DNA of 28,000 bases, from positions 90,001 to 118,000 of IMG/VR virus record IMGVR_UViG_3300045988_175865, one strand, 5' to 3'. Shown piece after piece: positions 1,252 to 28,000 of this stretch. Under the pieces are notes generated by a model that did not search any database, had not been told where the DNA came from, and was given only the letters and a program-made list of their open reading frames with translations. Position 1 is the first letter of the stretch; each line of letters opens with the position of its first letter. The position numbers and the translations under genes are program-made. This DNA is from a virus.

Positions 1252-3504
1252 ATGGATATAACCTACAAACCGTATATTAGAGATTCTTCATTTAAAGAAT
1301 TATCTATTAAAAGTCCTACTATTAATATTAAAGGATACAAACCTAAATATACTATTAAACAAGATAAAGAGGAGACAATTACTCCAGTAGAGTCTCCAAT
1401 AGAAGAGATACAAATGCATAAGAAACCTAAGATTAAAGAGGCAACTGCAAAAGCCATAAGATTTGAATCTAAAGAGGAGTTTAAGGATACTATGATTCCA
1501 ATATATGAGTCTCTCTTAGTTAAGAGGGGTTTAAATCCAGTATTTGCCAAAGCTTTAGTAGCTCAGGATGGATTAGAGTCTGCTTGAGGGTCTAAACCAT
1601 CTGGAAATTTTAATTTTGGGGGGATTAAAGGTAAAGGGGCTATTAAAAGAACTAGAGAGGTTATTAATGGTAAAGATGTCTATATAAATGATAGTTTTAG
1701 AGATTTTAATTCTCTAGAAGACTATGCTAATTTTAAGATTGACCTACTTAATAGTAATCGTTATAATGCTTTCTCAGGGAATATTTCAGAGTTTGCAGAT
1801 AGGGTTCAAAAAGGAGGATATGCCACAGATCCAAACTATTCTAGGACTTTAAACAAGGTAATTGCTACTGCTAAGTATGGTGGTACTCTTAAACTTCAAC
1901 TAGGAGGTGTTGTTCAAGGCAAACAATGAGTTAAAAATTGATATAAAAATCGTACATTTCAGATAAAAAGAAATATACAACAACATCAATTAATACCTAT
2001 ACCAGTTACAGGTGCCTTAGGGTATAATATTCTTGCGCATAATATAGATCTTACTACTGCCTCCATAGATCCTTCTAGAGTTCCTACGGATTCTAAAGGT
2101 GTATATTCCTATGGAGGTCGTAAAATATATCTAAGAGATGACTCTCCTTCTACTGCTGTTCATGAATGAGTGCATAGTAGCAGGCCTGATCCTCAAGTTA
2201 AAGAGATAGCTAGAATTAAGAATTTACTAGGGGATGCTTTTTATGACCAAAACTCAGTTATACCTGATGATTATCTAGATGATCCACAAGAGATATATGC
2301 AAGATTAATGCAGTTTAGGTATGCCTTAGGAGTAGATCCGAATCATAAGTTCACTAATGAAGAAATTGAAGACCTTAAAAAGAAGCATGTAAAACAAATA
2401 ACTCTAACAAATAGACTTAAAGGGAAAGATCATAATAGTTTTTCTACTACGGTGTTTGATAATGAAGGTAATGTTATCAGTACAGAGCCTTATCAACCTG
2501 AGTATAAGTATATTCCAGAAGAATCTACTGTTCATAGAGAATATGATACAAATAATACTTTTCAGTTCTTAGATAGATATAGTACTGATAGTATTCGTAG
2601 GATGTTAAATGATGTTGCACAAGTTCCTAATAAAAAGAAAAATTCTACTTTATATATAAAATTAGGATTAAAGATACCTAAATATCAACATTCTGGAGTT
2701 TTAAGAAATGCTTATAATGACCCAGAACATTATTATGATTATTCTAAAGGATCATATGATCCTGATACAGAACATTGATCAGGTAGAGATCCTGTAACTG
2801 GAATGGAATTAAAAAATCCAAACCATCCTACTGCATTTATGCACCATGAAGTAGAACAACAATTAGGGAATAAAAGATATCAAGATAGTAATGGTAGATA
2901 CTATACATTTCCAAATGGTGAAGCTCCGATCTGAAGAAACGTATATGGCCCACTTTCTGAGACTCCAGGACTCAAAGAGGTAAAATATCCGAGTTATGGA
3001 AAAGGAAAAGCCAGTGTGGAAGAAGCTATAAAAGACAATCTCCCAAGAGTACAATGAATTTGAGATCAATTAATTAGTGCAGGAGCATCTAAAGAGCAAG
3101 CAGCTGCTATATTGGGAAATTTCTGAAAAGAAAATCAAATTCAACCTTACGGTAAACCTTCAAGTAAAGGTGCTATGGGGCTTGCGCAACTTAAAGAAGG
3201 CAGATACGATAGATATATAGAATTTTTAAATAAAAATAAATTAATAGATAGTACTGAGTCTCAAATAAAATATTTGTTACCTATTATTTTTACAGATGAA
3301 GTAAATCCTCATAATTTAGATAATTATAACTCTTTTTGAAATGATTGAACAAAATCACAAAGAGAGGCTTTTAGAACTGCGAAAGGTCTAGATGATCTTA
3401 CAGTATCGTTTGCAGATAACTTTGAAAGAATGGGTAAAAAGGAAGCAGATTATGAGACTCGTATAAATGCCGCGAGATATATTTACAACTTAATGGTAAA
3501 ATAA
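1252..3504 (+). CDS. Multi-domain muralytic protein (750 aa in table 4): N-terminal glucosaminidase-like domain, central HExxH segment, C-terminal phage-tail-lysozyme-like domain
   Basis: Track ORFs 1252..1587 and 2170..2778 are in one frame and join across 11 in-frame TGAs with no TAA or TAG. Motifs: AQDGLES-A-W(TGA)-GSK...NFGGIKG...GGYATDPNYS (glucosaminidase-like); STAVHEWVHSS (HExxH); AAAILGNFWKENQ...GAMGLAQL (tail-lysozyme-like). Confidence 0.85.
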
Positions 3505-3531
3505 TTATAAATAAATTTAATAAATACATAT

Positions 3532-3780
3532 ATGTTTGCATTAAGAAAAATTACAAATGACGGTTTAGAAATGAATTTTAGTTTAGGAGACTCTTATACT
3601 TTAGTTATAAAAGAACGTTCTCCGAAAGAATTTGAAGATAAGATGAAAGATCATCCTTTTTATGATAAAACTTATGCTTTTATTTATTGAAAAGATGAGA
3701 TATTACCGTTATATAAAAATCAAAAAAACTATATTGTTTCTGAAAATGGGACAACTTATAGTAACTTAACATATAAATAA
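3532..3780 (+). CDS. Hypothetical protein (82 aa)
   Basis: ATG 3532 to TAA 3778-3780, with one in-frame TGA (FIY-W-KDE). Tightly packed with its neighbours. Confidence 0.5.
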
Positions 3781-3781
3781 T

Positions 3782-3973
3782 ATGACAACAATGACTTGGA
3801 AAACAAAATTAATTATTGCCACAATCGTAATTGCTTTAGTATTAGCAGGTTGTGGCATTGTGTCAGCTATGAGCTTTGGAAGTTTGTTGCTTGCATTAGT
3901 AAGTTTAGCAGTAGGAGCGGGTTGTGGTTGGTATGCTAAGCATATCTATGATAAATATTTTAAAGGTAAGTAA
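3782..3973 (+). CDS. Small two-TM membrane protein (63 aa); holin-like by size and topology only
   Basis: Hydrophobic stretches LIIATIVIALVLAGCGIVSA and LLLALVSLAVGAGCGW followed by a charged C-terminal tail. Both Trp are TGG and there is no TGA. A LAGC lipobox-like string is also present. Confidence 0.5.
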   Translation: MTTMTWKTKLIIATIVIALVLAGCGIVSAMSFGSLLLALVSLAVGAGCGWYAKHIYDKYFKGK

Positions 3974-3976
3974 TAA

Positions 3977-5026
3977 ATGAATACAATATTTTTTGGGCAG
4001 AATGTTCCTATACAATCAGCAACAAAGGTTAAAATAGATTATATCAATAAAACTAAACTTCCTATTAAAGTCAGTATTCGTTGAAGAGATAGAGATGTTC
4101 TAAATTATACTACTGAAACTTTAAATCTACTAGCTACGGGAATAGCTGAACAAACAGTAGCATTAAAAGAATTTGAATCAACCTCTGGAAAGGGTCTAGT
4201 AGTTGAGCCAATAACGAATGCAATTATCCAGTCTAGTACAACCTATCCTAATTTATTTATTAAAGCTACAGTAAAAGAGGTAGCAACAGGAGATACTATA
4301 GGGACATTTAACAAGGGAGGAACTATTAGTCCTATAATGGCTACAAAAGAGTATAAAGCAACTGTTACTTTTGAATATAATTCTGGAATTTATATCAATA
4401 GTACTGCTGCTAGTTATGTTCCTTCTGTTACCAGCAATCGCCCTACAATAACTGTATTTAGTGATGCTGATTCATATGGTATTACTGGAATATTTACACA
4501 AGACACAGCAGTAACTTATACTGATATAGAAGGAGATGGTTATACTCATTATATTAAAGTAAATAACTGTAAGAATATTGCATTAGATAGATATATTAGT
4601 GGAACTAATTCTGGATCTAACTCTAGTATTAGTTATTCAGATTTATATCCAACGGATATAGGAACAATAGATATCGGCAAAACTTTATTTTTATGAGTAA
4701 AATCATTTACATATGAAAAAGAATCTACTCCTACTCCTGATCCTTCAATTAGTTGTGATGTTTATGTATGTAGTCGCAATAATTTAAATAACACAGAATG
4801 TAGTATAGATATATATGAGGGGTATGGAACAACAGGAGTTCGTTTAGCCAATCGATCACTGGCCCCTGGGGAAGGAAATTGAGTTTCATATCAAGGTGGA
4901 TATAGAACATTCAGTTCCATACGTTTAAATTCGATTTTAAAGGGAACCCAGATAACTATCGCATTAAATGGGTCTCAAGTAAGTGATTGAGTAAATGAAA
5001 CAACTAAATATGTTTGAATTAATTAA
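3977..5026 (+). CDS. Hypothetical protein (349 aa), Ser/Thr/Asn-rich, possibly structural
   Basis: ATG 3977 is in frame with track ORF 4337..4696. The frame continues across several in-frame TGAs to TAA 5024-5026 and is followed by a strong terminator. Confidence 0.6.
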
Positions 5027-5030
5027 AAAT

Positions 5031-5060
5031 AAAAAGGGAGCTACTTAGCTCCCTTTTTAT
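5031..5060. terminator. Bidirectional rho-independent terminator: stem GGGAGCT 5036-5042 / AGCTCCC 5047-5053, loop ACTT, A-run on the 5' side and T-run on the 3' side
   Basis: Perfect 7-bp GC-rich stem flanked by AAAAATAAAAA and TTTTTATTTT, placed between convergent gene blocks. Confidence 0.8.
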
Positions 5061-5210
5061 TTTCATATTGTTTTGCGCTTATAATAAAGCATACTAGACT
5101 TAGTAATATATATATAGGTTGCAGTACTTTAGTACTTGTTATAAAAAATATTCCCATAAATATCAATCCTATAACATATCAAAATTTATACATTTCCAAA
5201 TTTTTTTAAA

Positions 5211-5231
5211 AAATCTCATAATGTGAGATTT
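5211..5231 (-). terminator. Hairpin AAATCTCA / TGAGATTT with a 5-nt loop, followed on the minus strand by a T-rich run
   Basis: Located 37 nt downstream (minus sense) of the TAG stop of CDS 5268..5654. Flanked by T/A runs on both sides. Confidence 0.6.
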
Positions 5232-5267
5232 GAATTTTTTATTGCATTTTGTTTTAAAGCATCCATA

Positions 5268-5654
5268 CTATCTTTTAGGTACACCTCCAAGTTTATCAGC
5301 TCATCTCTCTGAGAAAAACGAGTAATAAGATCTTTTAGACTTTGGGGTATGGACAGCTGCTCAAATAATACTAGGCAGTCCTATAATTAGTAAATAGAGG
5401 GGGCCTAAATATAAAGATTGTCGAGTATGTCCTCATTCATGTTCTTTTGTGTAATTTCTGTTATATTTCCAACTTGATTCTCCCATTAAGATATATAATC
5501 CTAATGAAATACCTCCAGGAAAGTCTCCCGCATAAATTGGAATTTCCCTAAAAGTTTCTTTGTACTCTACATTATAGCACCAAGTTAAAATAAGACCGAG
5601 AAGACACTGTGGAAATTCCCATATCCATCTCAGTATTTTAATATACCATTTCAT
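5268..5654 (-). CDS. Membrane protein with an HExxH motif (KEHEWGHTRQS), 128 aa
   Basis: Track ORF 5433..5654 continues through 4 in-frame TGAs to TAG 5268-5270. Hydrophobic segments CLLGLILTW, GGISLGLYILM and LYLLIIGLPSIIWAAV. The N-terminal Trp residues are TGG and the C-terminal ones are TGA. Confidence 0.6.
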
Positions 5655-5669
5655 ATAATATTTAATTTA

Positions 5670-6149
5670 TTATTTATAGTAAATTTGTTTAAATTGTTTT
5701 CAAAGTGAGTATTGAGCATCTATTGCTTCTTGTTCTCAAGGTCTTAACATATAATCCAATGAAGAATCAAACTGCTGTCCCTTTCATAAGAATACTAGTT
5801 TAGAGTCTTTTTTCACAAGTTCAAGATCTCTCCTTTCGTATTGATCAAAATGTTGCATTTCATGACATATAATAGTACTAAGACTATCAGATAACTTAGT
5901 TTTTAATAATAGATTATATGTATGAGGCACTGGTGTTTTATCTAATAGAGCTTGTAGTTCACATTCCTCAGTTGAAAATTTATTTAAGATTTTATCATTA
6001 TATTGTACTAAGATATTTGCATTAGTATAGTCAAATATTTTAGTTCCTATGACTTTAATTAATTCCTCCACATCATATTGTTTTGGAGATTCAATTAATG
6101 AGGTTACTTTAAATGTCTCAGGGAACTCTAATTTAGATCTTTCCTTCAT
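5670..6149 (-). CDS. Soluble HExxH metallopeptidase-like protein (159 aa)
   Basis: Track ORF 5784..6149 extends through 3 in-frame TGAs to TAA 5670-5672. It carries the motif TIICHEMQHFDQY and a downstream PWEQEAIDAQ. Family not assignable by eye. Confidence 0.55.
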
Positions 6150-6180
6150 ATTATTTAAAAACTAGTTATTATAACCTCTA

Positions 6181-6618
6181 TTAAACTCGTAGTTCTCCAT
6201 ATTGGTTTCTCATTCTTGGAGATATTCCTAAATGTACCCATGTAGTAGACCCACTTTTTTCAATAAAGCATTGATCTATAATGACTTTATTTCTAGTAAA
6301 ATAATCTTTAATAAAGTTAAAGAAGTTTTCTACTCCTTTAACAGAAGTATCTTCAGGTTGTAAATCTACTGCTTCATAGTATTGATGAGAGCTATTACTT
6401 ACGCCCCCCACAGCTTTATTAAGGCTTGGCGATCTATATCCAGAAGTAATAGTAATAGCAGAGCCTCATGCTTCTCTTAATGGATCTAAATATTCTATAG
6501 CTAGTTTACTTAGTTTTTCTATTCCCTCTCATGTAGGTAGATTTTCTATTTTTTTACTAATAGCTGTATCACTTCTTAAAAGTTCACTTAATTCAAAATA
6601 TTTAGGGGTATTTATCAT
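6181..6618 (-). CDS. Peptidase M15-type cell-wall hydrolase (VanY / L-Ala-D-Glu peptidase-like), candidate endolysin, 145 aa
   Basis: ATG at 6618. Reads FELSELLRSDTA...NLPTW(TGA)EGIEKLSKLA...LDPLREAW(TGA)GSAITITSGYRSPSLNKAVGGVSNSSHQYYEAVD...TTW(TGG)VHLG. This fits the SGYR...LN...GG..S.H...A.D...H zinc-peptidase pattern. Confidence 0.85.
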
Positions 6619-6621
6619 AAT

Positions 6622-6705
6622 TTAATCTATAATATATAATTTACCAAATTTCTCTAAAATCATATAAATATTTATTTGCGCTTTGATTTTCTTCCATGTC
6701 GTCAT
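6622..6705 (-). CDS. Possible 27-aa mini-ORF (MTTWKKIKAQINIYMILEKFGKLYIID) preceded by GGAGGTG
   Basis: ATG 6705 lies 9 nt after GGAGG (plus-strand CACCTCC at 6713-6719). The TAA stop at 6622-6624 is 3 nt before the endolysin ATG. Very short, with no homology evidence. Confidence 0.25.
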   Translation of the reverse strand: MTTWKKIKAQINIYMILEKFGKLYIID

Positions 6706-6719
6706 TTTTATACACCTCC

Positions 6720-6998: not shown

Positions 6999-7039
6999 AC
7001 TTTATAAAATAATTAATAGGATTATTATCTAGTAATATA

Positions 7040-7126
7040 TGTTTTTGCAAAAATAATTATTTATTTAGATATTTGCAAGTATTTGGATAAATTATTTGGA
7101 TATCAGAAAGATTTATTATATATTTG
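7040..7126. promoter_or_regulatory. Divergent promoter region: palindrome TTTTTGCAAAAA (7042-7053), direct repeats TATTTGGATA (7080-7089 and 7093-7102), and TATATTTG (7119-7126, matching TAnnTTTG)
   Basis: 168-bp non-coding gap between the minus-strand gene ending at 6998 and the plus-strand gene starting at 7167. Motifs read directly from the sequence. Confidence 0.45.
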
Positions 7127-7859: not shown

Positions 7860-7868
7860 AAGTATAAT

Positions 7869-8807
7869 ATGCCTAAACTTAGAGGGAGTAAATTAAAATA
7901 TGTTAATGGGTATGCAGTAGATAAAGAAAATGATAATATTATATACTCTGATGAAAAGCATATTTATATGGATAAGACCGATAATTCGAAATATGAATCT
8001 GTAACGACAATAATAGGACAGTACTGTCAAAAATTTGATTCAGACTTTTGGTCATCATATAAAGCTTGTGAGGCGTTATTAGACCCCACAGTGTTTTACC
8101 CATTAAAATCAAAACTTCTTTCTTCTAAAAAATGAAAGGAGTCTTATATTGAAGAATATGGATTAGATCCTGTTGAATTTCTAAATAAGAAATCTGAAAT
8201 CCTACAAAGTTATGAAGATAAGAGGAATGCTAGTACGGAACGTGGTACTAAAATTCATGCTATGATGGAAGATCTATTTTATCAAGGGGATAAAAAGGCA
8301 ATAAGCAAATATGCAGGAGGAGGAACTTTTGAGGTAAAGAAGGGATATTATAAACTAGATATTGACAGGGCAATTTATCCTGAGTTTCTTATAAGTTATG
8401 AATTTGACGAATACTTAAAGATTGCTGGTCAAATAGATTATTTACAGATAAGTGATAATGAGATAGTTTTGTTAGATTGAAAGACTAACGGTAAGATTGA
8501 TAAAGAGTCTTATTTTGATAGAACTACTAAGAAAAGACAGATGATGCTCTCACCATTAGAAAATATTATGGATTGTAATCTATGTCACTATCAGTTACAA
8601 CTTAGTATGTACGCATATCTTCTTCAGAAGATTAATCCTAAATTCAAAATAAAAAAGCTAGCAATTGTTCATTTTGATCACGACGGTAATGAAACTGAAT
8701 ATGAAGTAAAATATTTAAAAGATGATATTGCCAGACTTCTTTTATATCATAGGAAGAAGAATAAAATAAAAGCAGAACTTGATAGAGACAAACCAATAGT
8801 ATTTTAA
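7869..8807 (+). CDS. PD-(D/E)xK nuclease of the RecB/Cas4/lambda-Exo-like type (312 aa)
   Basis: Track ORFs 7869..8135, 8262..8480 and 8541..8807 share one frame and join across two TGAs. Motifs: ERGTKIHAMME, IAGQIDYL, LLD-W(TGA)-KTNGK (D/ExK) and HYQLQLSMYAYLL (QxxxY). Confidence 0.75.
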
Positions 8808-11792: not shown

Positions 11793-14111
11793 ATGGCGAA
11801 AAAACTAAGTATTGAAGCTGAAATGAGAGCTGCTCAGAGAGATATGAAGAAGAAGTTGAGTGGTGAAGATAAGGAAGAGGTAAAGAAGGTTAAAAAGAAA
11901 GCTAAACCAGTAAAAGAACAATATAAGGAAATAAAAGAATCTCTTAAAGAAAAAGAGGCTCCTAAGGAAATTGCTTTTAAAGATAATTATGAAGAGGAAT
12001 TAATTAGGGAATTATTTAAAGGTGATATTACTGTTTCCCAAGCTCTGGGTAAAGAAGATGAGCCTGAACAACCTAAAAGAGAGAAAAGTGGATTGTGGGA
12101 TTATGTTCTCGAAGATGAAATAGAATTCTTTGACCCTGAATGTAGTTATGAATTGACTGGTTATAGACCTATAGATGAAACTCATGGATTAGATTTTGAT
12201 CCAGCACCTTTTTGTGAAGCGGGAAGAGTCTATACTGAAACTGGTCACTATACTGAATATCCGTCTGGATCTAAACCATATGCTGATTTCTGACAAGAAC
12301 AATTAGATAGATGCATTAATGGTTATACGATTGGTAAGTATAGAATTACTGGAGATAATTATTTCTTCCTTAATTTTTATAGGATGCCTGTTGTAGACGA
12401 TTCTAAAAAACTGGCGGAAGCTTCTGGAGAAGGATTTCCAAAATTTGTAGCAGAGCAATATAAATTCTTTCATTATTTTGAAATGTGCGAACTACTTAAA
12501 AAAGACTGCGTTGCACTAAAAAGCCGAGGCATAGGCTGAAGTGAGATAGGAGCTTGTTTAGGAGTTCGTCCATTTATAACAGGAAGAAATTTTAATTCAA
12601 CATATATTACTTCTTCACTAAACTATCTGGAGCCGACATTAAATAAATGTTGAGCCCAGCTTCATTTTTTAAATGGAAACACCAACGGTGGATTTAGAAG
12701 ACCTATGATGAAGATTAACAATGCTCTTCATAAAAGAACTTCTCTTACTAATAATGAAAATCGCGAATGAGGCAGATTAAATAATATAGAAGGAATTGTA
12801 GCAGATAATATTAACAAAGTCCGTGGTATTCGTTCTAATAGACTTTTCTGAGAGGAGGGAGGGTCCTTCAAAAATCTAGAGACTGCTTGAATTAAAGGAG
12901 AGGCATTAGTAACAGTTGCGGGTGCTAGAAAAGGCATTATGAGTGTCTGAGGTACAGGAGGTGATTCAGATGCTTCTGCACTAGAGGGTCTATCTAAAAT
13001 GTTTAATAATCCAAAAGAATACAATGTACTTCCATATAAAAATAATTACTCTGAGGATGGTGAAGTTCAATATACTGGTTATTTTATACCCGCTTTTAAT
13101 ATTATGCTTAAAAAAGGTTTCTATGATAATAGAGGAGTTACAGATAGGAAAAAAGCAAGAGAACATTATGAAACTGAAAGAAAAAAGAAGTCTGGGCAAA
13201 ATTTATTAGATTATTGTGCAGAATTTTGTTTCACCCCTAGTGAGGCATTATTAAAACAAGGTGATGGTATTTTTGATCCAGTACTTATAGCAGATCGTTT
13301 AACTCAACTTCGTATACAAAAAGTAGGGGTAAAACCACAACAAGTTGATTTGTTATGAGATGTTCCAAAAGGGTTAGAAAATAATCCAAGAAATAAAGTT
13401 AAACTTATTCCTAATGCACAAGGAAAAGTATTTATATATGAACCTCCTCTTAGAGATGGGGAAGGGAATCTTTATAAAAATCTCTATATTGCAGGAATTG
13501 ACTCTATTGATCAAGGTACTGCAGATTCCTCAACAAACAATGATGTATCTGATTTTTGTATAGTAATTAAGAAAAGAATCTTAGGTTCCAATTCTTCAAA
13601 TTATGTTGCAATTTATAAAGATAGACCTAGGGACATTGCTACGGCTTATGAAAATGCTATGAAATTATGTGTATATTATAATTGTAAGGCGATGCTAGAG
13701 CATACAAAAATTAGTATTATTATGTATTTTCGTTCTAAAAAGAAAGATAATCTTTTTATGAAGAGACCAAAATCAACGATGCCTGATATTCGAAAAGGTA
13801 ATTCTGGAATGATTGGATATCCTGCAACTGAAACGTATCTACGTCATGGACTTGAATTAATTAGTAGATTTGTAGATGAATCTTGTTATTCTATACAGAT
13901 TGATGAAATGCTAGAACAATTACTTAAATATTCCTGGGAAAATAAACGTAAATTTGATATTGTTGCAGCTATGATAGCTGCTGAATTAGGGGATGAAGAC
14001 CTTTTAGGATTTACTCCAAGGGCTCAAGATGAAGTAAGAAATTCATGAAAGGATTTTGGATGATATTATGATTCAAATGGACAAAAACGATATGGCATTA
14101 TACCTTCGTAA
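11793..14111 (+). CDS. terL: Terminase large subunit (772 aa in table 4)
   Basis: Track ORFs 11793..12293, 12999..13358 and 13659..14048 share one frame and join over 10 in-frame TGAs. Motifs: ITGDNYFFLNFYRM, KSRGIGW(TGA)SEIG (Walker A-like), RLFW(TGA)EEGGSF (Walker B-like), W(TGA)GTGGD, YIAGIDSIDQG (nuclease Asp). Lys/Glu-rich N-terminal extension. Confidence 0.9.
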
Positions 14112-14400
14112 AGAAAGTAATCTTGAGTGTAGAGTTAGAGAACTAATTAACCAAGTTACACAGTCTGAGTATATTTCTCCTATTGATGTTAAATATGAAG
14201 ATGAGATATATACATTAAGACTTGGATTAAATTGTAAAGATGCAGCTCCAATATCTTTTGGGTATCAAGGTAGTGAAGAAGGATTTTTGAAATTTTTAGA
14301 AAAAGAATTTAAAAAGAGAAAACTTCAGAATATTAATTATACTACAGGAGTACTTATAAATGGAGATAGTAATTTGCATTTTCCAATAATAGAGTTATAA
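14068..14400 (+). CDS. Hypothetical protein between TerL and portal (about 110 aa)
   Basis: Track ORF 14056..14400 begins at TTG; ATGs follow at 14068, 14077 and 14092. It overlaps the table-4 C-terminus of TerL in another frame, so the start is uncertain. No TGA. Confidence 0.5.
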   Translation: MIQMDKNDMALYLRKESNLECRVRELINQVTQSEYISPIDVKYEDEIYTLRLGLNCKDAAPISFGYQGSEEGFLKFLEKEFKKRKLQNINYTTGVLINGDSNLHFPIIEL

Positions 14401-14402
14401 AA

Positions 14403-15578
14403 ATGAATGTTGATAGAGAAATAAAACAAATTGACAAAGCTATAAGTGAGTTAATATACCCTAAGATAGCACTTCAAAAAGCTTATAATTACTATCACAG
14501 TAGACGAGATGCAGATCAGTTTAGGCATATTGAAGAAAATTATGGTATTGGTGTACCCACTGGAATTACATTTAATCCTCTTGTTCGCCCTCATATAGAT
14601 AGGTTAATTGGAGAATATTTAGGATTAAATCAAGATTTAAAAATAACATGTAAAGATGAGGAAACAGTTTCTAATATTATGAGAGAAAAACAATTATTAA
14701 TTAGTAAAGAACTGTTTAATTATCTAAAAAAATATTTAGAAAATAATATAATATCTTCTATTATTAACAATGAAGAAGTTTCAACGGATCCATTTATTGA
14801 GAAACAATTAAATAAAATTAGTAATAGCATTAATGATTCTTTTGTATCTCAATATGAAATTGCAGCTCAGAATATTCTTGACTATTTAAAGCAGTCAAAA
14901 AATATAGATTTAACAAATAAAATGCATAGTCTGCTTACAGATTTATGTATTACTGGTACATGTTATTATAGAGTAAGACCTTCTAACAGTGGAGATAATA
15001 TACAATTTGAGGTATTGAACCCTATTAATACATTTGTAGAAAAAAATCCAAATTCAGACTATTTAGCAGATTCATACCGTGTAGTGGTTAGAAGGTATAT
15101 GTCTGTAGAAGATGTTTTACTAGAATATCGTAAAGATCTAAAGGAGGAACACATAAAACTTCTAAAGGAAGAGAATAACAGCACAATTGAGTCAGACGGT
15201 CCTTCTTATTATATTAGAGCCACATCTCCTGAAATAGCTGGAGTTTGAAACAGTACTCATACTGGAATTTTAGGGGGACTAGAAACACATCCTATATGAC
15301 CAGGTGAAACTAGCAGAACTAATAGGTACACTTACCCAAAAATGTGAACTGTTTATGATGTAGAATGAATTGAAGTTGATTATAAAACAGGAAAACAGAC
15401 TAGACATGAAGGTACACGTATTGGAGAAGAAATTTATATAACTAGGGGGGAATCTGAAAATATTATTAGAACAAAAGATAATCCGAATAAATGTAGATTA
15501 AGTGTTAATGGTTTATTTTTCCTAGATAAGAATGGAGATCCAAACTCCTTGATTATCAAGACAATGGATCAACAGGAT
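14403..15578 (+). CDS. Portal protein, exon 1 (392 codons)
   Basis: ATG 14403. N-terminal KAYNYYHSRRDADQF is portal-like. The frame continues past 4 in-frame TGAs to ...IIKTMDQQD, then hits TAA at 15579, which is the first codon of the intron. Confidence 0.8.
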
Positions 15579-15934
15579 TAAGATTATATGAGTCCTGTCT
15601 AAACCTCGTGAATTGCTGGAAACTCTTAAATTGAATGAAAGTAAATCTAAGACAATCAGCAGCCAAGCTCGTAAGAGAAGGTTCAACGACTATCCTGAAA
15701 GGGAGTACACTCAAGTGAGTGGAAGTGCGGGGGCAAATTTGATTTAAACTAATTATAAGTAGTTATGAAATATAACGAAATAGAATTTAAAAATCTAGTA
15801 GCTACAGAATGTTTTTCAACAGATTTATTTGAATTAGTTTTAGAACAAATTTGTATGATATAGTCTAATCTATATGGTGACATATAGCAGTCGCAAGACG
15901 GGTGTAAATTAACGACTTACACTGAATAAAAATG
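15579..15934 (+). ncRNA. Group I-like self-splicing intron (356 nt) with no homing-endonuclease ORF
   Basis: P1: exon CAGGAU (15573-15578) pairs with intron GUCCUG (15592-15597), placing U15578 opposite G15592. The last intron nucleotide is G15934. GNRA hairpins: CTATATG-GTGA-CATATAG (15870-15887) and GTC-GCAA-GAC. Hairpin CACTC-AAGT-GAGTG (15708-15721). Long-range complement CGACT (15687-15691) / AGTCG (15889-15893). Removal restores the portal frame. Confidence 0.75.
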
Positions 15935-16969
15935 AAATATGACTTATTAGTATTTTATCGAGATAACTTAATTTCTAGTTCAGGTACTGTTGGAGATTGA
16001 GTTGACTTAGCTTATGTACCACAGGTTTTAGGAGTAGATTTACCAGAACGATTACAAAAATGATTAGCTTATAAAAAGCAAGGTATGGGCTTAATTGATA
16101 GTAGTCAAGAAGGAGCTCAAACAATGAATACGATATTTAATGGTTATGATGATACTATTAAAGCACAAAGTATCCAGGCAATTAATTTAGCTATACAATC
16201 AATTCAACAACAGGTTTCTATGGTCACTGGTGTTTTACCTGAGGCTCTAGCTCAGTATGAACAACGTGATGCTGTTTCAAATGTTAAGTTGGGAGTACAA
16301 ACTACAATGCTTTTAACTAAGCAAATTTTCAATGCTATGGATACTGTATATCAAGAAGCAAATTATGATATGCTTAACCTTGCGAAACTAGTTTGACCAA
16401 AAGGAATAACAGGCACAATTGTTTTAGGTAATTATTCCAAAATATTTACAGCCCTTCCCCAATATTATACCTTAACTGATTTTGATATTCATATTGAAGA
16501 TAGTACTAAATCTTATCAGAACGTACAATCATTAATTGCAATCAGTGGAGAGCTTGTTAAGAGCGGAGTAGCAGATTTAGGAGATATTACAAATATTATA
16601 ACTGCATCTTCTATTACTGAATTAAAGCGATATATTGATCGCTCTATAGCTCGTAAAAAAGAGGAAAATGATACTATTGAACAGTTACAACAACAAATTC
16701 AACAGTATGAACAAAATTCTAAAGAACTTCAAAAAGTTAATCAACAATTACAAGAACAAATTCAACAGCTACAGAATCAATTACAAGCTAATAATCAAAC
16801 TAAACTTGAAATTGAAGCAGAAAAGGTTGCAATTGAGAAAGAAAGGATGAGGAATGATAAGGAATATAATGATAAGAGTCTAGAAGTTAAAAATAAACAA
16901 ATTGATGCACAGGTTGCTGAGATATATGATGATAATCCGTATAATAATAAAATAAAAAGTGTAATATAA
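15935..16969 (+). CDS. Portal protein, exon 2 (344 aa plus stop), with a Gln-rich coiled-coil C-terminus
   Basis: Starts KYDLLVFYRDNLISSSGTVGD-W-VDLAYVPQ and includes track ORF 16085..16396 in the same frame. Three in-frame TGAs. TAA at 16967-16969 overlaps the next ATG. Confidence 0.8.
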
Positions 16970-17966: not shown

Positions 17967-20900
17967 ATGGTTTCGGATACATATTATAATGCAATGGGTT
18001 CACGCTCATTTTATAAAGGTACATCTTTTAGATGTACAGAATGATGCTTAGAAACTCACTACTTTAACAATGAGGACTTTATTGATTTTGTATCATATAA
18101 AGGGGCTCTTCTTAGATGTACAAGAAGTCATATTTCCTCTGTTGATAATGAACCATCTCTTGTTATTAATAATAACTTAATTGTTGGAATTAATGACTCT
18201 CCTGTTTGGGAATTTATAATGGGAGGAGGATCAATTGAAACAGGTCAATTAAATATTGATTTCAAACTAGAAGACGGCCATCTTTGAGTTTTTTGTAATG
18301 AAAAATGGAAGGACTTAGGAAATGTTAAAGGAGATCAAGGTGAAACTGGAATACAAGGAATACCAGGAGACCCTGGTAAGGGAGTGCCAAGTGGGGGTAA
18401 TACAAATCAGGTACTAGTAAAACAGTCCAATTCTGATTATGATACTATTTGAAAAACTATAAATACTTCTGGAGGAGAGCTCCCAACGTTTTCTGCAAAA
18501 GTATTGAGTACTACTAGTACGGAGGATGCTCCAGAAGCTACTGTAACTTTAAGTGACTCTAATGAATTTCAGTTTTCATTTAAATTACAAAAAGGACAAG
18601 ATGGAGTTAATGGTACTCCAGGAATTAATGGAGACGGCTTAAAGTACATATATATTCGAACTACTAAAGCAAATAAGCCAACAACTCCAACTGGTAGCGG
18701 AGAAGATGTAGAGTTGCCTACTGATGTAGAGTGGGGTCTATGAAAGTCTTCCCCTACAGGTGTAGATTCTACATATAGATGGGAATGAGTTAGTGCTAGT
18801 GTTTATATTAACGGTAGTTGAGAGTCTTATAGTGAACCATCTTTATTTGCTTATTATGCTCTTGATGGAGTTAATGGAACTGCTCCAAATTATAAAACTT
18901 ACGTTTATGCTCAATCTAATTCTAAACCAGATAAACCTAACTTCAATACTCCTCAACCTCCTACAGAATCGCAGTGAAAAGATTACCCATTAAGTAGTGG
19001 GCAGTGATGGCAATGTATAGGAGTTGTGGATGGACAAACAAATACAGTTATTCAATGAGGAGAAGTATTACCTGTAAATGGTAAAGATGGAACTGCTCAA
19101 GATGGAAAATTTACTGAGTTTAGATTTGCTGTAAATAGTAGTAATATTACTCCTCCAAGTCTATCAAATACAGTAAGAACTCCAGAGGGATGGTCTTTAA
19201 CACCTCCAACTAAGAGTAACTCTCAATACTTATGGATGACAACAGCAGTTATTAATCCTAATGATACTTTGTTTAGAAATTGATCTACTCCAGTATGTAT
19301 TAGTGGTGAAAATGGTGAACCAGGAGCTACTGGAGCTGCTGGTAATTGAACTTCTTATGTATTTAAAAACAGTTCCTCTACGCCAGATACTCCTACAGGC
19401 ACTGATCCTGTCCCCACAGGATGATCTGATGCACCAACATCATCAGATGGTACTTGATGAATGTCTAAAGCATTAATTAGTGGAGTTACTCAAAAAGTGG
19501 TTGGAGAATGATCCGCTCCACAACGAATTACGGGAGAAAAGGGACAAGATGGTGAAGACGGAACTAATGGAACTGATGGGATTTATACAGATTATAAATT
19601 TGCAAAAAGCTCTTCCAAAAGTGAAGTGCCATCAATTAACAAACAAAGTTCTAATCCTGGTAGTAATTGAAGCGATCAATGGCCCGTAATTAATTCTGGA
19701 GAATTTCTCTGAATGACTTTTATTAAAAAGAATTCTAAAGATGATTCTATTGTATTAGGGGAAGAATGAGCAACTCCTGTATGTATTACAGGAGAACAGG
19801 GTCCTCAAGGTCCTATTGGATCTACAGGAGCATCAGGTACTCCAGGTGTGGGTATTGTTATGAGATTTTGTAATGGTACTGACACAGAGCCAAGTAATGC
19901 TAAACCAACAAATACATTAGATACTGCAAGTCAAGGATGAACTGTTACTCCTCCCTCAACTACAGAAGATTATCCTAGATTATGATTTATACAGGGTAGA
20001 ATAAAATATTTAAATAATGAGGATCGAGATGGGCAACTTGATGGTAGTTGAAGTGATCCTGCATTGTTTAATGGGCCTGCAGGAGTAAATGGAGAAGCAG
20101 GTAAAAAAGGTCAACTGATTTATCCAGTAGGTGTTTATGATATAAATACTACATATAGTACTACTGAAGAAAGTGCTCCTTATGTCTATGTCTATAATTC
20201 AGAATCTAGTAAATCTGGATACTACTTATTATCAGCAGTTACCAGTTGAACAGGAACTGATCATAATAATTGGTCTCCAGTTGAATCAATTGATAATGAA
20301 GAGCATTATTGGACTAAATTTAACCACTTTGAGGCAATTTTTGCGGATGTGTCTATTTTCCCCAACTCTCTTGTTGGATCAGCTGTTTTTAATGGAGATT
20401 ATATGTTTAGTCAAACTGGTAAGGAGTCAACAGGAATAACTACAAATTACAATAAGTTTGATCCCGAAGATCTATCCAAATGATACCCTGCTTACTATAT
20501 AAATTTAAGAACGGGAGAATGTTCATTAAACTTTGGCCAATGTACATTTAAATATTCAGATTCCTTTAATTCAAAAACGTTAATGACTATTGAAGGAGGT
20601 ATTAATATAATCCCAGATATGATCTCTCCATCTAGATATAGTAACTATATTTCCACACCTTGTATTTCAATTTTAGCAGATGAAGAAGGATTAGCAAATG
20701 GCAATATATATAAGTTCGCTTTATCAGAGGAGTACCTACCTATTACTAAGGGAGTTATTAAGGGTTCTATTGATAATTGTACATATTTAAATGGACTAGA
20801 AGAAAATGATGAAGATTATGTTGTAATATCTCCAGCAGAAAGTACAGAGAGTAGTAATGGTATAATAAACTTTGTAACATATCAAAATGGTACTATAAGA

Positions 20901-21216: not shown

Positions 21217-22842
21217 ATGAAAAATATTAAACCAGATATTGATCTTCAAAATTCAATTGAACGTAGTAGGATTACTGAATCTAGAGAGTATTACAAAGGC
21301 AAGTCTTTTAACTTTGCTAAAGAATGGCACCCTGGAATAAATTATTTTAATGATAATTATATTACTGACTTTGTATCTTATAAAGGAACTTTATTAGTAT
21401 GCCGTAGAACACATCTTTCTAGTAATAGTAACAGACCTGAGCTACTATTTGAAGATCCAAAAGATTCAAATCAGCCAACTGGAGTAAAATCTGAATATTG
21501 AGATTTTATATTGGCTGGAACTCCAGGACCTGGAGGAAAAGTATATATCCCTAACTATAATACATCTACTGGAGAACTTTCTTGAGTTATATCTGATAAT
21601 ATAGAAAGTATTAATCCTGTAAATATAAAAGGGGAAGATGGTAAAGATGGAAGAGATGGTAAAGATGGAAAGAATGGAACAAATGGAAAAGATGGTGATA
21701 CTTATGTCCCACAACCAGAGCTTGATAATAACTACATAGTATTTAAATCTTTACAAGGAAAAGAAACTATTAAAGTAGATTGTAGTAACTTAAAGGGGGA
21801 ACCTGGAGAAAAAGGTGAAAAGGGTAATGATTGAATATTTAGTAAGGTTAATACTATTACCTTGTCTCCTGATGATAGCGGATATGCAGAAATATCTGCA
21901 GATACTCCAGGAAGTGAATCTACAACTTATACTTTAACTTTAGGAATCCCTCAAGGAAAAACAGGTCTTAAGGGGAATAAGGGAGAAAAAGGAGAGAAAG
22001 GAGATCAGGGAGAAAAAGGAGAAGCAGGTCCTACCCCTCTTTTTAAACTTATAAGGAATGAGAGTACTAGATCTATAGATTTATATTGATCTATTGATGA
22101 AGATTCAGACTGAGTGAATCTAGGAAGTGTTGGAGGGAAATCCCCAAAATTATTGAGAGTTTTTGATGTTGCAGAACACCCAAACGCTCAAAATAATACT
22201 AGACGAGATGATCGTATAGTATGAGGTTATGATGGAGTTGCAGTTAGTGAATGAACTACTCTATGTTATCTAGATGAACTTAGAGGAGATGAAAATATAT
22301 GAATAAGTACTGAGGAAGTTAAACCAGGAGAGGGTAATCATCCAGTAATGGAAGTTAGAGACCCAGATAATCCTGATAAGACTATCCAAGTTGAAGATAG
22401 AGATAAAATATGGTATGATCCATTTGATTATAGTTTAGATGAATTTAGCTCATTTGAATTTGTATTCAATGCTTATAAGGAGGCGGGGGGTCAATTAAGT
22501 GAGGATGCTTTTAGAAATACCTTTGCTAATGTTTCTAACTTAACCATTAAATTTTGGAAAAGAACATTAGAGGATTTTCTCAAAACTGATGCATCTAGTC
22601 ATCAAAATGAGCTGTGGCTAGTTAGATCAACAACTGGAACTAGTGATGATACTTTTGAAGAGTATTATGCAGTACAGTCTCCTGAAGTTGGTAAATGAAT
22701 GTGAGAAAAATGGGGATCTGGATCTATTAATGTAGATTTAAGTGATTATATTACAAAAGCTGAGGCAAATTCATATATACAAGAACAGGTAAATAACATA
22801 CTATCTTCTCTAGTAATAGATGGGGGGGAATTAACAATATAA
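21217..22842 (+). CDS. Second collagen-like tail-fibre protein (541 aa)
   Basis: Track ORFs 21217.., 21862.. and 22348.. share one frame, joined over TGAs. G-X-Y tracts: GEDGKDGRDGKDGKNGTNGKDGD, GEPGEKGEKGND, GKTGLKGNKGEKGEKGDQGEKGEAGP. The N-terminus is paralogous to that of the 17967 gene. Confidence 0.8.
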
Positions 22843-22846
22843 TTAT

Positions 22847-23335
22847 ATGAATATTAGTACTATACAATTTAAACGAATATTAAAATATTCTGGGACTAGT
22901 ACAGAAGCAATAAGATATATACGAGAACAATTAACTCCTCCATTAAAAAATGGAGAGCCTCTTTTAGTCTCTTACAAGGATATTACAGAGGAAAACTATA
23001 AGTACTTTATAGCAATTGGTATAGATGAAAACAATAGAAAAATACAGATATCTCCAATATTTAATTCTATAGAAGATTTTAATAATTATATAGAAAAACA
23101 CAGTCTTGGAGTAACTTCCGAGAATTTGGCAGATGACTCTGACATTACAATTAATAAAGATACTTCTGGAAATTATATAGTTAAGGTTAAAACTCAGATA
23201 ATCTCTGCAGATAATATTAATACTACAATATCTTTAGAAGAACCTGAGATGACTATAACTCAGAATCAATTTAATAATTTAGTGTGAGAAAAAATATCAG
23301 AAATAAACGATAAGTTAGTCTGATATGAATTATAA
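22847..23335 (+). CDS. Hypothetical protein (162 aa) inside the fibre cluster
   Basis: Track ORF 22847..23287 continues over two TGAs (NLV-W-EKISEINDKLV-W-YEL) to TAA 23333-23335. Confidence 0.55.
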
Positions 23336-23356
23336 ACAAAAAAAAATTAAGAGTTT

Positions 23357-24442
23357 ATGGATGTATTAAAGTTTAAATTTGGTACAGAATTAACTGAATC
23401 TGTACAAAAAGGAGACTTTGTTGCTATTAATAAAGGTATTAAAGAAGAAAATGATTCTGAATCATTAAACTCTAAACTGGGATCTTTATATAAAGGCAAC
23501 AAAATTCTTGGTACTACAGAAGCAGATAAACTTGTTACTACAGAAGAAATTACTGTCGCGGGCTTAAACGGAGATTTAGGAGCAGGAATTCAGAATGGTA
23601 AAACAATTCCAGCAGGAACTAGTTTACAAGAGTTTTTAGTGATGTTATTAAGCAAGGAATTAAATCCTGGGGCAGCTACAAAACCTTCTATTTCAATTAC
23701 AGGAACTTCTAATATGAGATTGAAGGAAATATATTCGACAGTTACTATACCAGCAGTTAGTATGTCTACCAACAATGGTAAGTTTAATAATAATGGTTGA
23801 ACAAGTCCTGCACAGCCCTCTGTAAAAGGAGTAAATTGATCAGGAAAAACGATTACTCCAAGTGCGCAGGCTGGATTTACTGGATATACTCCTGAAGCTG
23901 GTGAAGTTATTGCTCAATTTACTTCAGCAAAAATAGCACTTGGACAAAATACCGTTACATATACTGCAACTGGTAACTACACTGCTCCAACTAATAAACC
24001 TATTACTAATTTAAATCATGAATATACAGGAGCAGATGCTACTTTTACTGCTGGTTCTGCAACTAATTCCAGTCGTACCACAGCAACAGGTGTTTATCCA
24101 GTATTTACAAATAATGCTGTGACTTTAACTGCTCAGGCAAGTACCAAACTAACTCTTACTGAAGGACCTTCATTTGAAGTTAGTTTTAATAGTGAGTTAG
24201 CTGCAGGGCAATTTATTATGGTAGCTATTCCAGATAGTTTTACTATTACTAAGGTAGAAGCATATAATACGATGAGTAATAAGTATGAAACTTATGGAGG
24301 ACAATCAAAATTTGAAGCTGAAGAAGAAAAAAGAAGTATTAATGGCACAGAAGTTCAATATAAATTATGAACTCGACAAGGAGACAATAAAAATGATGCT
24401 ATTAAATATCGGTTCACATTAAGTAAAAAGTTAAGTGCATAA
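23357..24442 (+). CDS. Hypothetical structural protein, probably a tail or fibre component (361 aa), Thr/Ser/Ala-rich
   Basis: Track ORFs 23357..23800 and 24119..24370 share one frame, joined over TGAs. TAA at 24440-24442. Confidence 0.6.
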
Positions 24443-24444
24443 TT

Positions 24445-25980
24445 ATGGCAAGAGGTACAAATACATTTAGTTTAGGCGCAGGTTTTAATATAACTGGCCA
24501 GGAGCCTATTGATTCTAGACTTGTTGTTGGTACATTAAGTGATCTTACTACACAAGAAACTTGGAATGGTATAGGTCTTTATAACGGATTAGTTGTAGCT
24601 GTTACTGAGTCATCAACATTATATGTACTTAAAAATCGTGATGATGTAACTAATCCAGAATCATGAGTAGCTGTTGGAGGCGATGTCTCTGATGATTTAG
24701 CCGAATTAACTGCTGATGTTGAAGGTTTAAAAACTAGCAAACAGGATAAAATCATTGCTGGAAACGGTATTGATTTAAATGCAGATGGAAAAACCGTTTC
24801 TATTAAAATTGATTCTACAGGGCAAGGACTTGAACTAGGACCTAATGGTTTAAAAGCAGTTATTCCAGAAGCCGCTGAATATACTATTGCAGCTGCTGAT
24901 TCTCCTACTGAAGGATATTTAAAGAGTTATGAACTTCGTAAGAATGGAGATAAAGTAGGAGTTTCTATTGATATCCCCAAAGATTTAGTAGTTACCAAAG
25001 GTGAGGTCAAAGAAGTAGAAAAAGAAAACACTCCATACGAGGGGGCATCTGTTGGAGACCTTTACTTAGAGCTATCAATTGCAAATCAAGGAACTCCTGT
25101 ATATATCCCTGTTAAATCATTAACTGATGTTTACATAGGAAGTACTTATATTAGTGTTGATGCTGGAGTTATTTCTATCAAGTATGATGACTTAAAGGGA
25201 CAAATCAATACAGATTTAGTAACACCAATTTCTAGAAGGGTAACAACAGTTGAAAGGAAAGTAACAGCATTAGAAACAACTGTTGGAAGTGTTTCGAGTG
25301 GGTTAGTTAAAGATGTTAATGACTTAAAAACTAATATAGACCAAAAGGTAGATAAAGTTGAAGGCAGCTCATTAATTACATCTGAAAAATTAGCTTTGAT
25401 TGATACTAATGCTTCCAAAATTGGGACTTTAGAAACAACTGTATCTGCAAAATTAGATAACACAGCTACTGTTAATGGTCAATCTTTTGTTGGAGGATCT
25501 TGTACAATTAACGCTACTCATATTAACATTGAGGACAAAATTGGAGATAATGTTGCGGGGACATCAATTGAAGAGGTTTTATCTAACTTTAATGGTAAGA
25601 TTACTGATGCTGCAGATGCTGGAGTACAGTCTTTTGGTGGAAAAACAGGAGCAATCACAGTAAAAGGAGGAAATGATGGTTCTACCCCTGCAGTTAATCT
25701 TACAATGAGTGATAATGAACTACAGGCTATACCCATAGGCGTAGCTAGTTCAGCACAAGGAGCAAAGGCAGACACTGCACTTCAAAATATAACTGCTTCT
25801 TCTAGCTCTGATTATCTTACATTAAGTACAAGTAGTAAAAAAGGAGGTTCACAGGGTATTACTGGAAATTTAAATATACAAAGTATTGAATCTGCTTCTA
25901 TAGAATCTAAAGGACTTGCAGAATCATATGATGTAAAACAATACGTTGATAATATGCTTGTTTGAGAAGAATTGGGATAA
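24445..25980 (+). CDS. Tail-fibre-like protein (511 aa) with a central coiled coil
   Basis: Track ORFs 24445.. and 25396..25965 share one frame. N-terminal SRLVVGTLSDLTT...GLYNGLVVAV...LYVL is fibre-like. Heptad-like stretch RRVTTVERKVTALETTVGSVSSGLVKDVNDLKTNIDQKVDKVEG. Ends ...MLV-W-EELG-TAA. Confidence 0.7.
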
Positions 25981-25991
25981 AATAATAAGGT

Positions 25992-26013
25992 GGGTAGGAA
26001 TTTTTTCCTACCC
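25992..26013 (+). terminator. Hairpin GGGTAGGAA-TTTT-TTCCTACCC between two fibre genes; no 3' U-tract
   Basis: Perfect 9-bp stem followed by a C-run rather than a T-run. It may be an attenuator or an RNA-stability element rather than a canonical terminator. Confidence 0.35.
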
Positions 26014-26035
26014 CCCCCATCTATATTAAAATAAT

Positions 26036-28000
26036 ATGGCAAATAAAAATAAGTTTATTTATTGTAAAACTAAAGCGAACTTTAATTCTTATTTACAGGA
26101 ACATGAAGAGGAGCTTTATAATTGTACCACATTTATACAAGATTCAAAAGAAATTTATACTCATGGAAATTTTTATAAGGCTAGTAATAGATGGGCTATT
26201 TCAAGTCTAACAGGCAGCTCTGATTATGCAACATTAGCTTATAATAATGGTAAGGTCGGGGATATATTTGACATGTCTTCTGGGACTACTGTTCATGGTA
26301 TATTAGGTACAATTAATGATAAGAAATGATATATATTCTATAAAGATTCTATTAGAGAATATATATATAATACAGATACAAAAAAATTTACAGCAGGAGC
26401 TACAATTAATCTTGCTAATGACTCTGAAATTCCAGATCCTGCTACTGTGGCTCCTAAAATGGATGGTACAGCTGCTGTAGGATCATCTAATAAATATGCA
26501 CGTGAAGACCATGTGCATCCTTCAGATAATACCAAACAGGATACTCTTGTTAGTGGAGAATCAATTAGAACAATTAACAATCTTTCTTTATTAGGGGAAG
26601 GTAATATTAATGTAGGCGATGTTCCTTCTATTACAGTAGAAAATGAACAAATACCAAATGAGACAGATTTTAATAGAGTTGCAGAAGCTGCGGCAAATAA
26701 TAGAGCTGTTTTAATTAGAATTAAAACTACTGAAATGACGTTAACCTCTAATTATTGACAGTATACCTCTTCAGAATCTCAGAGAGGCTTTGTTGCTTAT
26801 GCAACATATTTATCAGAAACTAATAACATAACTCTGACGGCACATATTATAGAAAATCAACCAGTTATGGTAGAAACTTATGATAAAGAATTACAAGAAG
26901 AGTTAGTTTCTGGGACTAATATTAAAACTATTAATGGTACTGCTATACTAGGATCAGGTAATATAGACACTCCAGATAGTAAGGTTACTAGTGCTGCTAA
27001 TCACTATACTCCTGTTGGAGGAAGTGCTACATCTGGAACTATTATAAATTCTATTACTAAGGATGAGAAAGGACATATTATAGATATAGGGGTTGCTAAT
27101 GGTATAGATGCTGGTAAAATTACCTCGGGAGTTATTGATATTGAGAGATTGCCTAAGGGAGCACTGGAGCGTTTAGTAATAGTTGCAAATAAAGCAGCAA
27201 GACTAGCTTTAACCACTGAACAAGTACAAGAAGGCGATACTGTTAAAGAGAAAGATACAGGTGTAATGTATTTTGTTATTGATTCTTCTAAATTAAATAG
27301 TGAAGATGGCTACTCTATTTATACAGCAGGAGCAGCATCTAGTGTGCCTTGGTCAGGAGTGACAGGTAAACCTGATTTAGTTAACTCGGTTAAGTTAGTA
27401 CTGCCAAGTTCCATATTCATTAATTCTGAAAGTACACTTACAGGAAATGCAGAATTAGGATCATCTTTAAGTACACAAAACGCTAATACAGTATGAGCAG
27501 CTCCAAGTGGCACATCTGGGGTACCAACATTTAGGAAATTAACTTTCCTAGATATGAATACAGTAACGTCAGATAAATTTAACTATATACCCCAGACATT
27601 TAAAGGAGGAAGGCTAGTAATTAATTATAAAAACTCTGCTGGGGGTCAAAATACTGACAACACTATAACAGAATACCAATTTGGAGATGGGGCCAGTAAT
27701 CTTACATACATAACAGCAAAAGGTTTTAAAACTTCGGAAAATAATGGACACAGGGTACTATGTTCAAATGGATCTTCCAAATTATTGTATGGACCATCAA
27801 CTCCTGGAACAGCAGGACAAGTATTAATTTCAAATGGGTCATCAACTCCTGAATGGGGAAAAGTACCTATAACTAGTATAGGAGGACCTACTGTTGATAC
27901 TGCGACTTCTAATACTGTACCATATGGAATTACTTCATATATTGGGGAGTACCGTTCTGATAAATTAGCGTTTATAAAGAGCACTGATTTATATGGAGAA
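26036..28000 (+). CDS. Tail-fibre protein, 3'-truncated by the window end (more than 654 aa)
   Basis: Track ORFs 26036.., 26447.. and 26867.. share one frame, joined by TGAs, and the frame stays open to 28000. Common fibre motifs: PKMDGTAAVGSSNKYAREDHVHPSD, VPWSGVTGKPD, APSGTSGVPTFRKLT, GTAGQVLISNGSSTPEWG. Confidence 0.8.

Follow-up and report, generated by a model that had tools for sequence, protein, structure and literature searches.

What does UGA mean to a phage when, by the standard code, it breaks the gene for the terminase large subunit (TerL) into 11 pieces? The question is posed by 28,000 nucleotides (nt) of IMG/VR virus record IMGVR_UViG_3300045988_175865 (positions 90,001 to 118,000 of that record, here called the window and numbered from its own first letter), which is the lysis, packaging and tail module of a ~165–170 kb uncultured crAss-like gut phage. 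As judged from sequence comparison, TGA in the lysis, packaging and tail genes between 1252 and 28000 is a sense codon for tryptophan, and TAA and TAG are the sole terminators. Late-gene recoding of this sort, TGA to Trp, is already well established in crAss-like phages and in other phages of the gut, and the window is another instance of it. The chief interest lies in a candidate opal suppressor tRNA, two-armed and with a split gene, that is found in close relatives. Taken overall, the reading of UGA as Trp in late genes, together with the published model of a suppressor supplied by the phage, is very probably the best explanation of what is seen.

The case for a sense codon starts with frame length. 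Stop-to-stop open reading frames (ORFs) of at least 100 amino acids (aa) sum to 19.4 kb when all three standard stops are respected and to 34.5 kb when TGA is counted as sense, the longest growing from 433 to 1091 aa, whereas with TAG freed in its place the longest is still 433 aa. Such a comparison of codes had been suggested by the initial annotation of the window, made from its letters, and a clear gain in length and tiling is found only with TGA freed. The TGA-sense ORFs tile the plus strand almost without gaps from ~1156 to 28000 and are accompanied by three minus-strand genes at 5268–6618; as these also contain TGA, the recoding is on both strands. With the base composition of the window (31.2% GC) TAA and TAG together should account for ~6.5% of random codons, from which the chance of a 1091-codon frame lacking both is, by simple arithmetic, ~1e-32. 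The 24 genes called from 1252 on have 102 in-frame TGAs and 32 TGGs, and termination of the 25 complete window genes is by TAA in 24 cases, by TAG in one and by TGA in none, in agreement with the earlier statement that TAA mostly, and TAG sometimes, still terminates. The coordinates quoted in the initial annotation are all present and in frame, and the muralytic gene at the start of the block does have 11 TGAs and no TGG. Its fragment counts, three for TerL and four for the large tail fibre, were too low: table 11 would cut TerL at its 10 TGAs into 11 pieces, and in the fibre there are 23 TGAs.

In NCBI nr and UniRef TerL is represented only by fragments of 119–166 aa, named ‘hypothetical protein [virus sp. 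ctrcb4]’ or ‘Terminase large subunit [Bacteriophage sp.]’, and therefore table-11 annotation has broken it up. While the fragmentation of genes under table 11 and the short ctrcb4 ‘hypothetical’ pieces in nr would also suit real stops, whether in pseudogenes, in assembly artefacts or in genes served by leaky readthrough with no dedicated tRNA, this is practically impossible given that the same full-length TGA-bearing frames occur in hundreds of independent assemblies, that TGA and TGG interchange synonymously while the flanking protein is conserved down to 50% identity, and that leaky readthrough cannot pass 10 to 23 stops per essential gene.

Which amino acid, then, does TGA specify? Window proteins with TGA masked as X were compared by tblastn with 18 related loci, and in the resulting 358 high-scoring segment pairs window TGA is aligned to TGA 1040 times, to TGG 168 times, to Tyr or Phe codons ~37 times and to GGN 11 times, and window TGG is aligned to TGA 111 times. 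Being aligned to each other in relatives, TGA and TGG therefore behave as synonyms. TerL permits a comparison with phages in which TGA is a stop (cr1_1, ProJPt-Bp1, cr60_1, cr4_1, cr273_1 and MT835470.1, some of which recode TAG and none TGA). At TGA columns 167 and 287 every aligned TGA-as-stop relative has W, at column 366 most have it, and at columns 249, 353 and 386 they have W, F or Y; the other TGA columns are variable, and in none is the residue mainly Gly. In the muralytic protein the TGA at 1585 is opposite the W of the GH73 motif ESGWG in PDB 7qfu_A; in the M15 peptidase, aligned to PDB 1lbu, a TGA is opposite Met and is uninformative. Counting TGA as Trp gives a Trp content of 1.64%, in contrast to an implausible 0.39% from TGG alone. 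These codon swaps, TerL and GH73 columns and Trp content bear out the initial annotation, which had argued for Trp from the repeats of the large fibre and from motifs. In the fibre, PEGWSL has TGG at 19191 where PTGWSD and SQGWTV have TGA (19422 and 19938), and YLWMT has TGG at 19233 where FLWMT has TGA at 19710; six paralogous repeats are visible by motif, though a blastp self-comparison of the fibre gave no significant match. The motif TGAs, at 1585 (LESAWGS), 8478 (LLDWKT) and 12537 (GIGWSE), are likewise where they had been placed.

Two other meanings of TGA, glycine (code 25, as in phages of the Absconditabacteria/Gracilibacteria type) and selenocysteine, were tried and rejected. Code-25 phages do exist (10.1101/2021.08.26.457843), and the tRNA with anticodon UCA described below is labelled ‘SeC’ by ARAGORN and has a long variable arm and G73. 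That TGA should here be glycine, selenocysteine or cysteine is nevertheless barely conceivable, with GGN opposite window TGA just 11 times as against 168 for TGG and ~37 for aromatic codons, with TGA columns that are not mainly Gly in either the tblastn or the TerL alignments, and with W in the conserved TerL and GH73 columns. For selenocysteine specifically, the TGA sites fall on Trp columns, and there are 102 of them, which therefore rules out insertion dependent on a selenocysteine insertion sequence (SECIS). Nor is the fold of that tRNA of the tRNA-Sec type, as its acceptor/T arrangement is 7/5 and its D stem 4 bp long, where the bacterial tRNA-Sec identity needs 8/5 and a D stem of 6 bp.

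How far does the recoding extend? A walk upstream was made through close relatives whose TerL is 97% identical to that of the window, with 49.6 kb of IMGVR_UViG_3300045988_163797 being assembled; the upstream data are thus from contigs of relatives and not from the window’s own genome, and the related sequence covered is ~95 kb of a genome of ~167 kb. Relatives are cited here by L or P numbers. The ~38 kb directly upstream has ~45 genes on the opposite strand, with nucleotide-metabolism genes and scattered tRNAs, and in them 93 TGGs and 26 TGAs are found; set against the 102 TGAs and 32 TGGs of the window, the ratio is strikingly reversed (Fisher p = 2e-18). Upstream genes are nearly bimodal, either TGA-only or TGG-only, and the TGAs of the 38 kb are mainly in a LicD-family gene (4 TGA, 0 TGG), in ORFs for HNH and LAGLIDADG endonucleases and in a few doubtful ORFs. 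On a composite of L024, L029, L035 and L052, TGA-using LicD or homing-endonuclease ORFs are at −20809..−19931 and −6053..−5529 relative to the window. Beyond −38 kb TGA-only genes return, intermixed with TGG-only ones. Among them is an RNase H gene, the TGAs of which sit where, we take it, E. coli RNase HI has W. In the other direction, the TGA-rich structural block of relatives goes on for at least 10 kb past the window. To judge from these sequences the recoding is partial and module-wise, and is not a genome-wide table 4. The ‘table 4’ reading of the initial annotation thus holds for 1252–28000, where TGA is Trp, but was overstated in scope, the upstream ~38 kb of relatives being mainly TGG.

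Might the phage merely follow a host with code 4, of the Mycoplasma/Spiroplasma type, with no switch of its own? A GC content of 31%, the lack of Shine-Dalgarno motifs in the window, the use of TGA by almost every Trp-containing window gene and the failure of default scans to find an intact suppressor tRNA would all sit comfortably with such a host. It is very unlikely even so. Partial recoding by module argues against it: an AT-rich code-4 genome would use TGA everywhere, whereas the adjoining 38-kb block encodes Trp as TGG (93 times), and most of its TGAs are confined to LicD and mobile endonucleases. In addition, TerL and portal are crAss-like, of a lineage that infects Bacteroidota (PMC7886860), relatives carry a phage gene for tRNA(UCA), and in published surveys such recoded phages infect standard-code hosts (10.1101/2021.08.26.457843). 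In those gut phages, early genes are readable under either code, and it is lysis and structural genes that are recoded (10.1101/2021.08.26.457843; Peters et al. 2022, PMC9523058). As to the start codons of the window, the ~22 nt upstream of them are A/T-rich and almost without a Shine-Dalgarno motif, as is usual in Bacteroidota and their phages, and this leaves the host undecided.

What reads UGA? The initial annotation had suggested a search for a tRNA with a UCA anticodon. There is no tRNA of any kind in the window, and ARAGORN with default settings finds ~12 kinds of tRNA in the ~95 kb of related sequence, none of them UCA. With introns allowed, a split one does turn up in the close relatives, in L052 at 12585-13311 (+) and correspondingly in L054 and L038. 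The gene lies at the end of the TGG-only block that is farther from the window, ~38 kb upstream of window position 1. An insertion of 633, 609 or 527 nt separates U34 from C35 of its anticodon, which is why default ARAGORN misses it. The 633-nt form carries an HNH ORF that itself has two in-frame TGAs. Seven loci (L052–L057 and L038), which span the three insertion variants, have exons that are 100% identical by blastn. U is the last letter of the 5′ exon and G that of the insertion, the letters on the two sides of the exon junction being ...GCGGUCUU and CAAAACCGU..., and the last 202 nt of the insertion, identical in all variants, have a fold with z = −4.6 relative to shuffles. No paralogue of the insertion is found by blastn elsewhere in the related loci. 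Joined, the exons give 94 nt, for which minimum free energy alone yields a cloverleaf with A1-U72, G73 and the anticodon arm GCGGU-CUUCAAA-ACCGU. That arm is, we take it, closely like the one of E. coli tRNA-Trp. In L149, a 163.7 kb phage, the tRNA(UCA) gene is unsplit and its flanking genes are syntenic and 51–71% identical; therefore the exon junction is real and the insertion secondary. A scan of GTDB with the D-arm motif of the tRNA returned mainly tRNA-Gln(CUG) and tRNA-Trp(CCA) from many phyla, and so no host signal. A 404-nt gene resembling transfer-messenger RNA is called by ARAGORN at L039 208–611, with tag AKKIFHKMTNKVMSLITPMNTQVVLAA; it does not recur in the other contigs and is probably a false positive.

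This tRNA and its unsplit relatives have a second peculiarity. In the split candidate the variable arm is a copy of the anticodon stem-loop of tRNA-Trp, with the loop YUCCAAA. Scanning IMG/VR for a contiguous anticodon arm gave 50 unique tRNA(UCA) sequences, of which 25 are unsplit relatives of the split one (L099, L106, L115, L149 and L151 are examples; alignment A2). All 25 have a long variable arm, with a 4–5 bp stem in which compensatory changes (covariation) are present, and its 7-nt loop always holds UCCAA and is usually CUCCAAA (YUCCAAA), which is the anticodon loop of tRNA-Trp(CCA). A literature search found no description of a variable arm copying the tRNA-Trp anticodon loop, which is no proof of novelty. 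We tentatively propose, as a possibility, that the opal suppressor has the body of a tRNA-Trp with a UCA anticodon, that its variable arm mimics the stem-loop of tRNA-Trp(CCA) for the benefit of tryptophanyl-tRNA synthetase (TrpRS), and that its gene has been split by a mobile, endonuclease-bearing insertion. On the model published for gut phages with recoded genes, early genes, being readable in either code, would for that reason be translated by the standard machinery of the host. The phage would then supply the suppressor derived from tRNA-Trp, which would allow the TGA-rich late genes, among them those for the muralytic protein, TerL, portal and fibres, to be translated to their ends. The insertion between U34 and C35 would have to leave the RNA before the tRNA(UCA) could work, and the variable-arm copy may be what keeps recognition by TrpRS after the anticodon change from CCA to UCA. 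Of the phage tRNA(UCA) tested in an E. coli extract, 13/13 inserted Trp (PMC12636597).

Several considerations pull the other way. The upstream block is imperfectly free of TGA, its LicD, HNH and LAGLIDADG genes using it, the window lacks a tRNA, and the split gene is seen in the contigs with 97% TerL identity rather than in the genome of the window itself. That the host uses the standard code we infer from the TGG-only early block, the crAss-like lineage and the literature. An intact second suppressor, or a gene for RF1/RF2 or TrpRS, could lie in the remaining ~80 kb. The insertion has no match to the Rfam group I model RF00028, even at E-values up to 10, and its 5′ part differs between two variants; therefore the gene could be dead. 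Is the split tRNA(UCA) then a relic, broken by a mobile endonuclease, with the decoding of UGA left to some other factor of the phage or to a phage-modified host tRNA-Trp? The lack of a group I match, the variable 5′ part and the ~80 kb beyond the sequence covered all lend themselves to this, as does the fact that a suppressor is detectable in only 35% of code-4 phages, for which other mechanisms have been proposed (10.1101/2021.08.26.457843). We consider it doubtful, for both exons have stayed 100% identical over seven loci with three insertion variants, the 202-nt 3′ part common to these is strongly structured, and the window alone has >100 essential TGA codons. The exon-end U and insertion-end G also speak against it, and so does the position of the insertion between U34 and C35, presumably the same as that of the classical tRNA-Leu(UAA) group I intron.

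Should the split suppressor be functional, >100 TGA codons of the late genes could be decoded only after an RNA-processing step, and the proposed early-to-late code switch would gain a checkpoint at that level. Split genes could also explain part of the suppressors ‘missing’ from most code-4 phages, four opal-recoded Zeta genomes without one included (PMC12386605). The two-armed tRNA, if functional, would be a natural way for a tRNA with a changed anticodon to keep its TrpRS identity, a point of relevance to genetic-code engineering. On a more practical note, table 11 turns an abundant gut phage into annotation debris, and therefore code-aware gene calling is needed.

The features of the window are collected in the table. 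Pfam recognizes neither TerL nor portal, both of which were identified by PHROGs. One break in a frame of the window has a different origin. The initial annotation had ascribed almost every break to in-frame TGA, but the interruption of the portal gene at 15579–15934 is a 356-nt group I intron. Its Rfam match (RF00028, at 15545–15887) scores 67.1 bits, the gathering score being 50, with E 8.5e-17; a scan of the window in gathering mode missed it and a later E-value scan found it. L001 and L003 have the intron-less allele, an unsplit portal gene of 736 aa. T is the last base of the exon and G that of the intron, and the spliced ORF is also of 736 aa with no internal stop. A 110-aa ORF at 14068–14400, with neither TGA nor TGG, is called in all related contigs; it lies in a different frame from TerL and shares with that gene its last 44 nt.

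Table. Features of the window, with counts of in-frame TGA and TGG codons
Feature	Position	Strand	Basis and codon content
HTH_36 DNA-binding protein	170..952	+	Pfam PF13730, E 2.9e-17; 0 TGA, 0 TGG; first plus-strand gene, adjoins recoded block
Muralytic protein, 750 aa	1252..3504	+	N-terminal GH73 glucosaminidase PF01832, C-terminal phage tail lysozyme PF18013; 11 TGA, 0 TGG
Protein of unknown function, 349 aa	3977..5026	+	No PHROG match; 5 TGA, 0 TGG
Minus-strand gene	5268–5654	−	3 TGA
Minus-strand gene	5670–6149	−	3 TGA
M15_3 peptidase	6181–6618	−	Pfam PF08291, E 2.1e-15; 2 TGA
PD-(D/E)XK nuclease	7869..8807	+	Pfam PF12705; 2 TGA, one at 8478 in LLD-W-KT
TerL, 772 aa	11793..14111	+	PHROG 6681, E 3e-58; 10 TGA, 2 TGG
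Portal exon 1	14403..15578	+	PHROG 6547; aligns to bases 1–1176 of the unsplit L001 portal gene; 4 TGA
Group I intron in portal gene, 356 nt	15579..15934	+	Rfam RF00028
Portal exon 2	15935..16969	+	PHROG; 3 to 4 TGA
Collagen-like tail fibre, 1078 aa	17967..21203	+	About six W-rich repeats; 23 TGA, 10 TGG, interchangeable at paralogous positions
Tail/fibre gene	21217–22842	+	10 TGA
Tail/fibre gene	22847–23335	+	2 TGA
Tail/fibre gene	23357–24442	+	3 TGA
Tail/fibre gene	24445–25980	+	2 TGA
Tail/fibre gene, ~1540-aa protein	26036 onward, runs off window	+	3 TGA

To what kind of phage does the window belong? Its TerL is 27–31% identical to the TerLs of Crassvirales phages of the International Committee on Taxonomy of Viruses (E 1e-37 to 1e-49), and in tblastn its matches are crAss-like, Bacteroides, Flavobacterium and Azobacteroides phages; one unannotated human-gut phage reaches 44% identity and no phage-collection record exceeds 60%. 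By megablast the window had just two matches in the phage collection, of 40–55 nt, both in the core of the portal intron; at 15674–15727 they are with Staphylococcus and Aeromonas phages. Within metagenomes the phage is common. Related contigs are of 155–175 kb, exact copies of window proteins are on many contigs of 160–170 kb, and the TerL family has >2000 members on contigs of 155–175 kb, several with inteins; 597 collection blocks list the 266-aa window protein and 1171 the HTH protein. From these sequences the phage is probably of the ‘Zeta’-like crAss-like type, with introns and inteins, a placement that rests on size, introns and inteins, many tRNAs and TGA-recoded late genes, matched by description. 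In-frame inteins occur in TerL genes of relatives (L018 10001–13456; L002 ~5106–6284; P0006–P0011), with Pfam matches PF14528, PF14890, PF05203 and PF05204, an insertion in TerL of L016 and L017 that has TAA and TAG stops is probably an intron, and the TerL gene of the window itself is uninterrupted.

How does all this compare with what is known? Group I introns of the cyanobacterial tRNA-Leu(UAA) type lie between positions 34 and 35, have U at the exon end and G at the intron end, and carry homing endonucleases. The tRNA(UCA) insertion shares with them the 34/35 site, the terminal U and G and the homing-endonuclease ORF; unlike them, it has no RF00028 match and no internal guide sequence that could be placed. 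Zeta crAss-like phages are known to have introns, inteins and TGA-to-W recoding of late genes (Yutin et al. 2021, PMC7886860; PMC12386605), and with the opal-recoded ones, the Lera phage (PMC12386605) included, the phage of the window shares a Crassvirales-like TerL and portal, a genome in the range of 145–192 kb with many tRNAs and dense introns and inteins, and the use of TGA for W chiefly in structural and lysis genes. Several opal-recoded Zeta members likewise have no suppressor tRNA that standard tools can detect, whereas the Lera phage has an ordinary, detectable tRNA-Sup(TCA) and in the relatives studied here the gene is split in the anticodon. Common to the recoded gut phages of Borges et al. 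(10.1101/2021.08.26.457843) and Peters et al. (PMC9523058) and to the present case are late recoding, the preference of homing-endonuclease ORFs for TGA and, as the proposed switch, a phage suppressor tRNA, here a candidate; the proteomic proof in those studies concerns TAG to Gln. Jade phages differ in having a ‘code change module’ (tRNA, TrpRS and RF1), none being found in the ~95 kb read. With the code 4 of Mollicutes and mitochondria there is the common feature that UGA is read as Trp, with a tRNA-Trp-like tRNA of UCA anticodon as the reader there and the candidate reader here, but in the present case only part of a phage genome is reassigned, and the tRNA carries an additional arm in which the CCA anticodon loop is copied.

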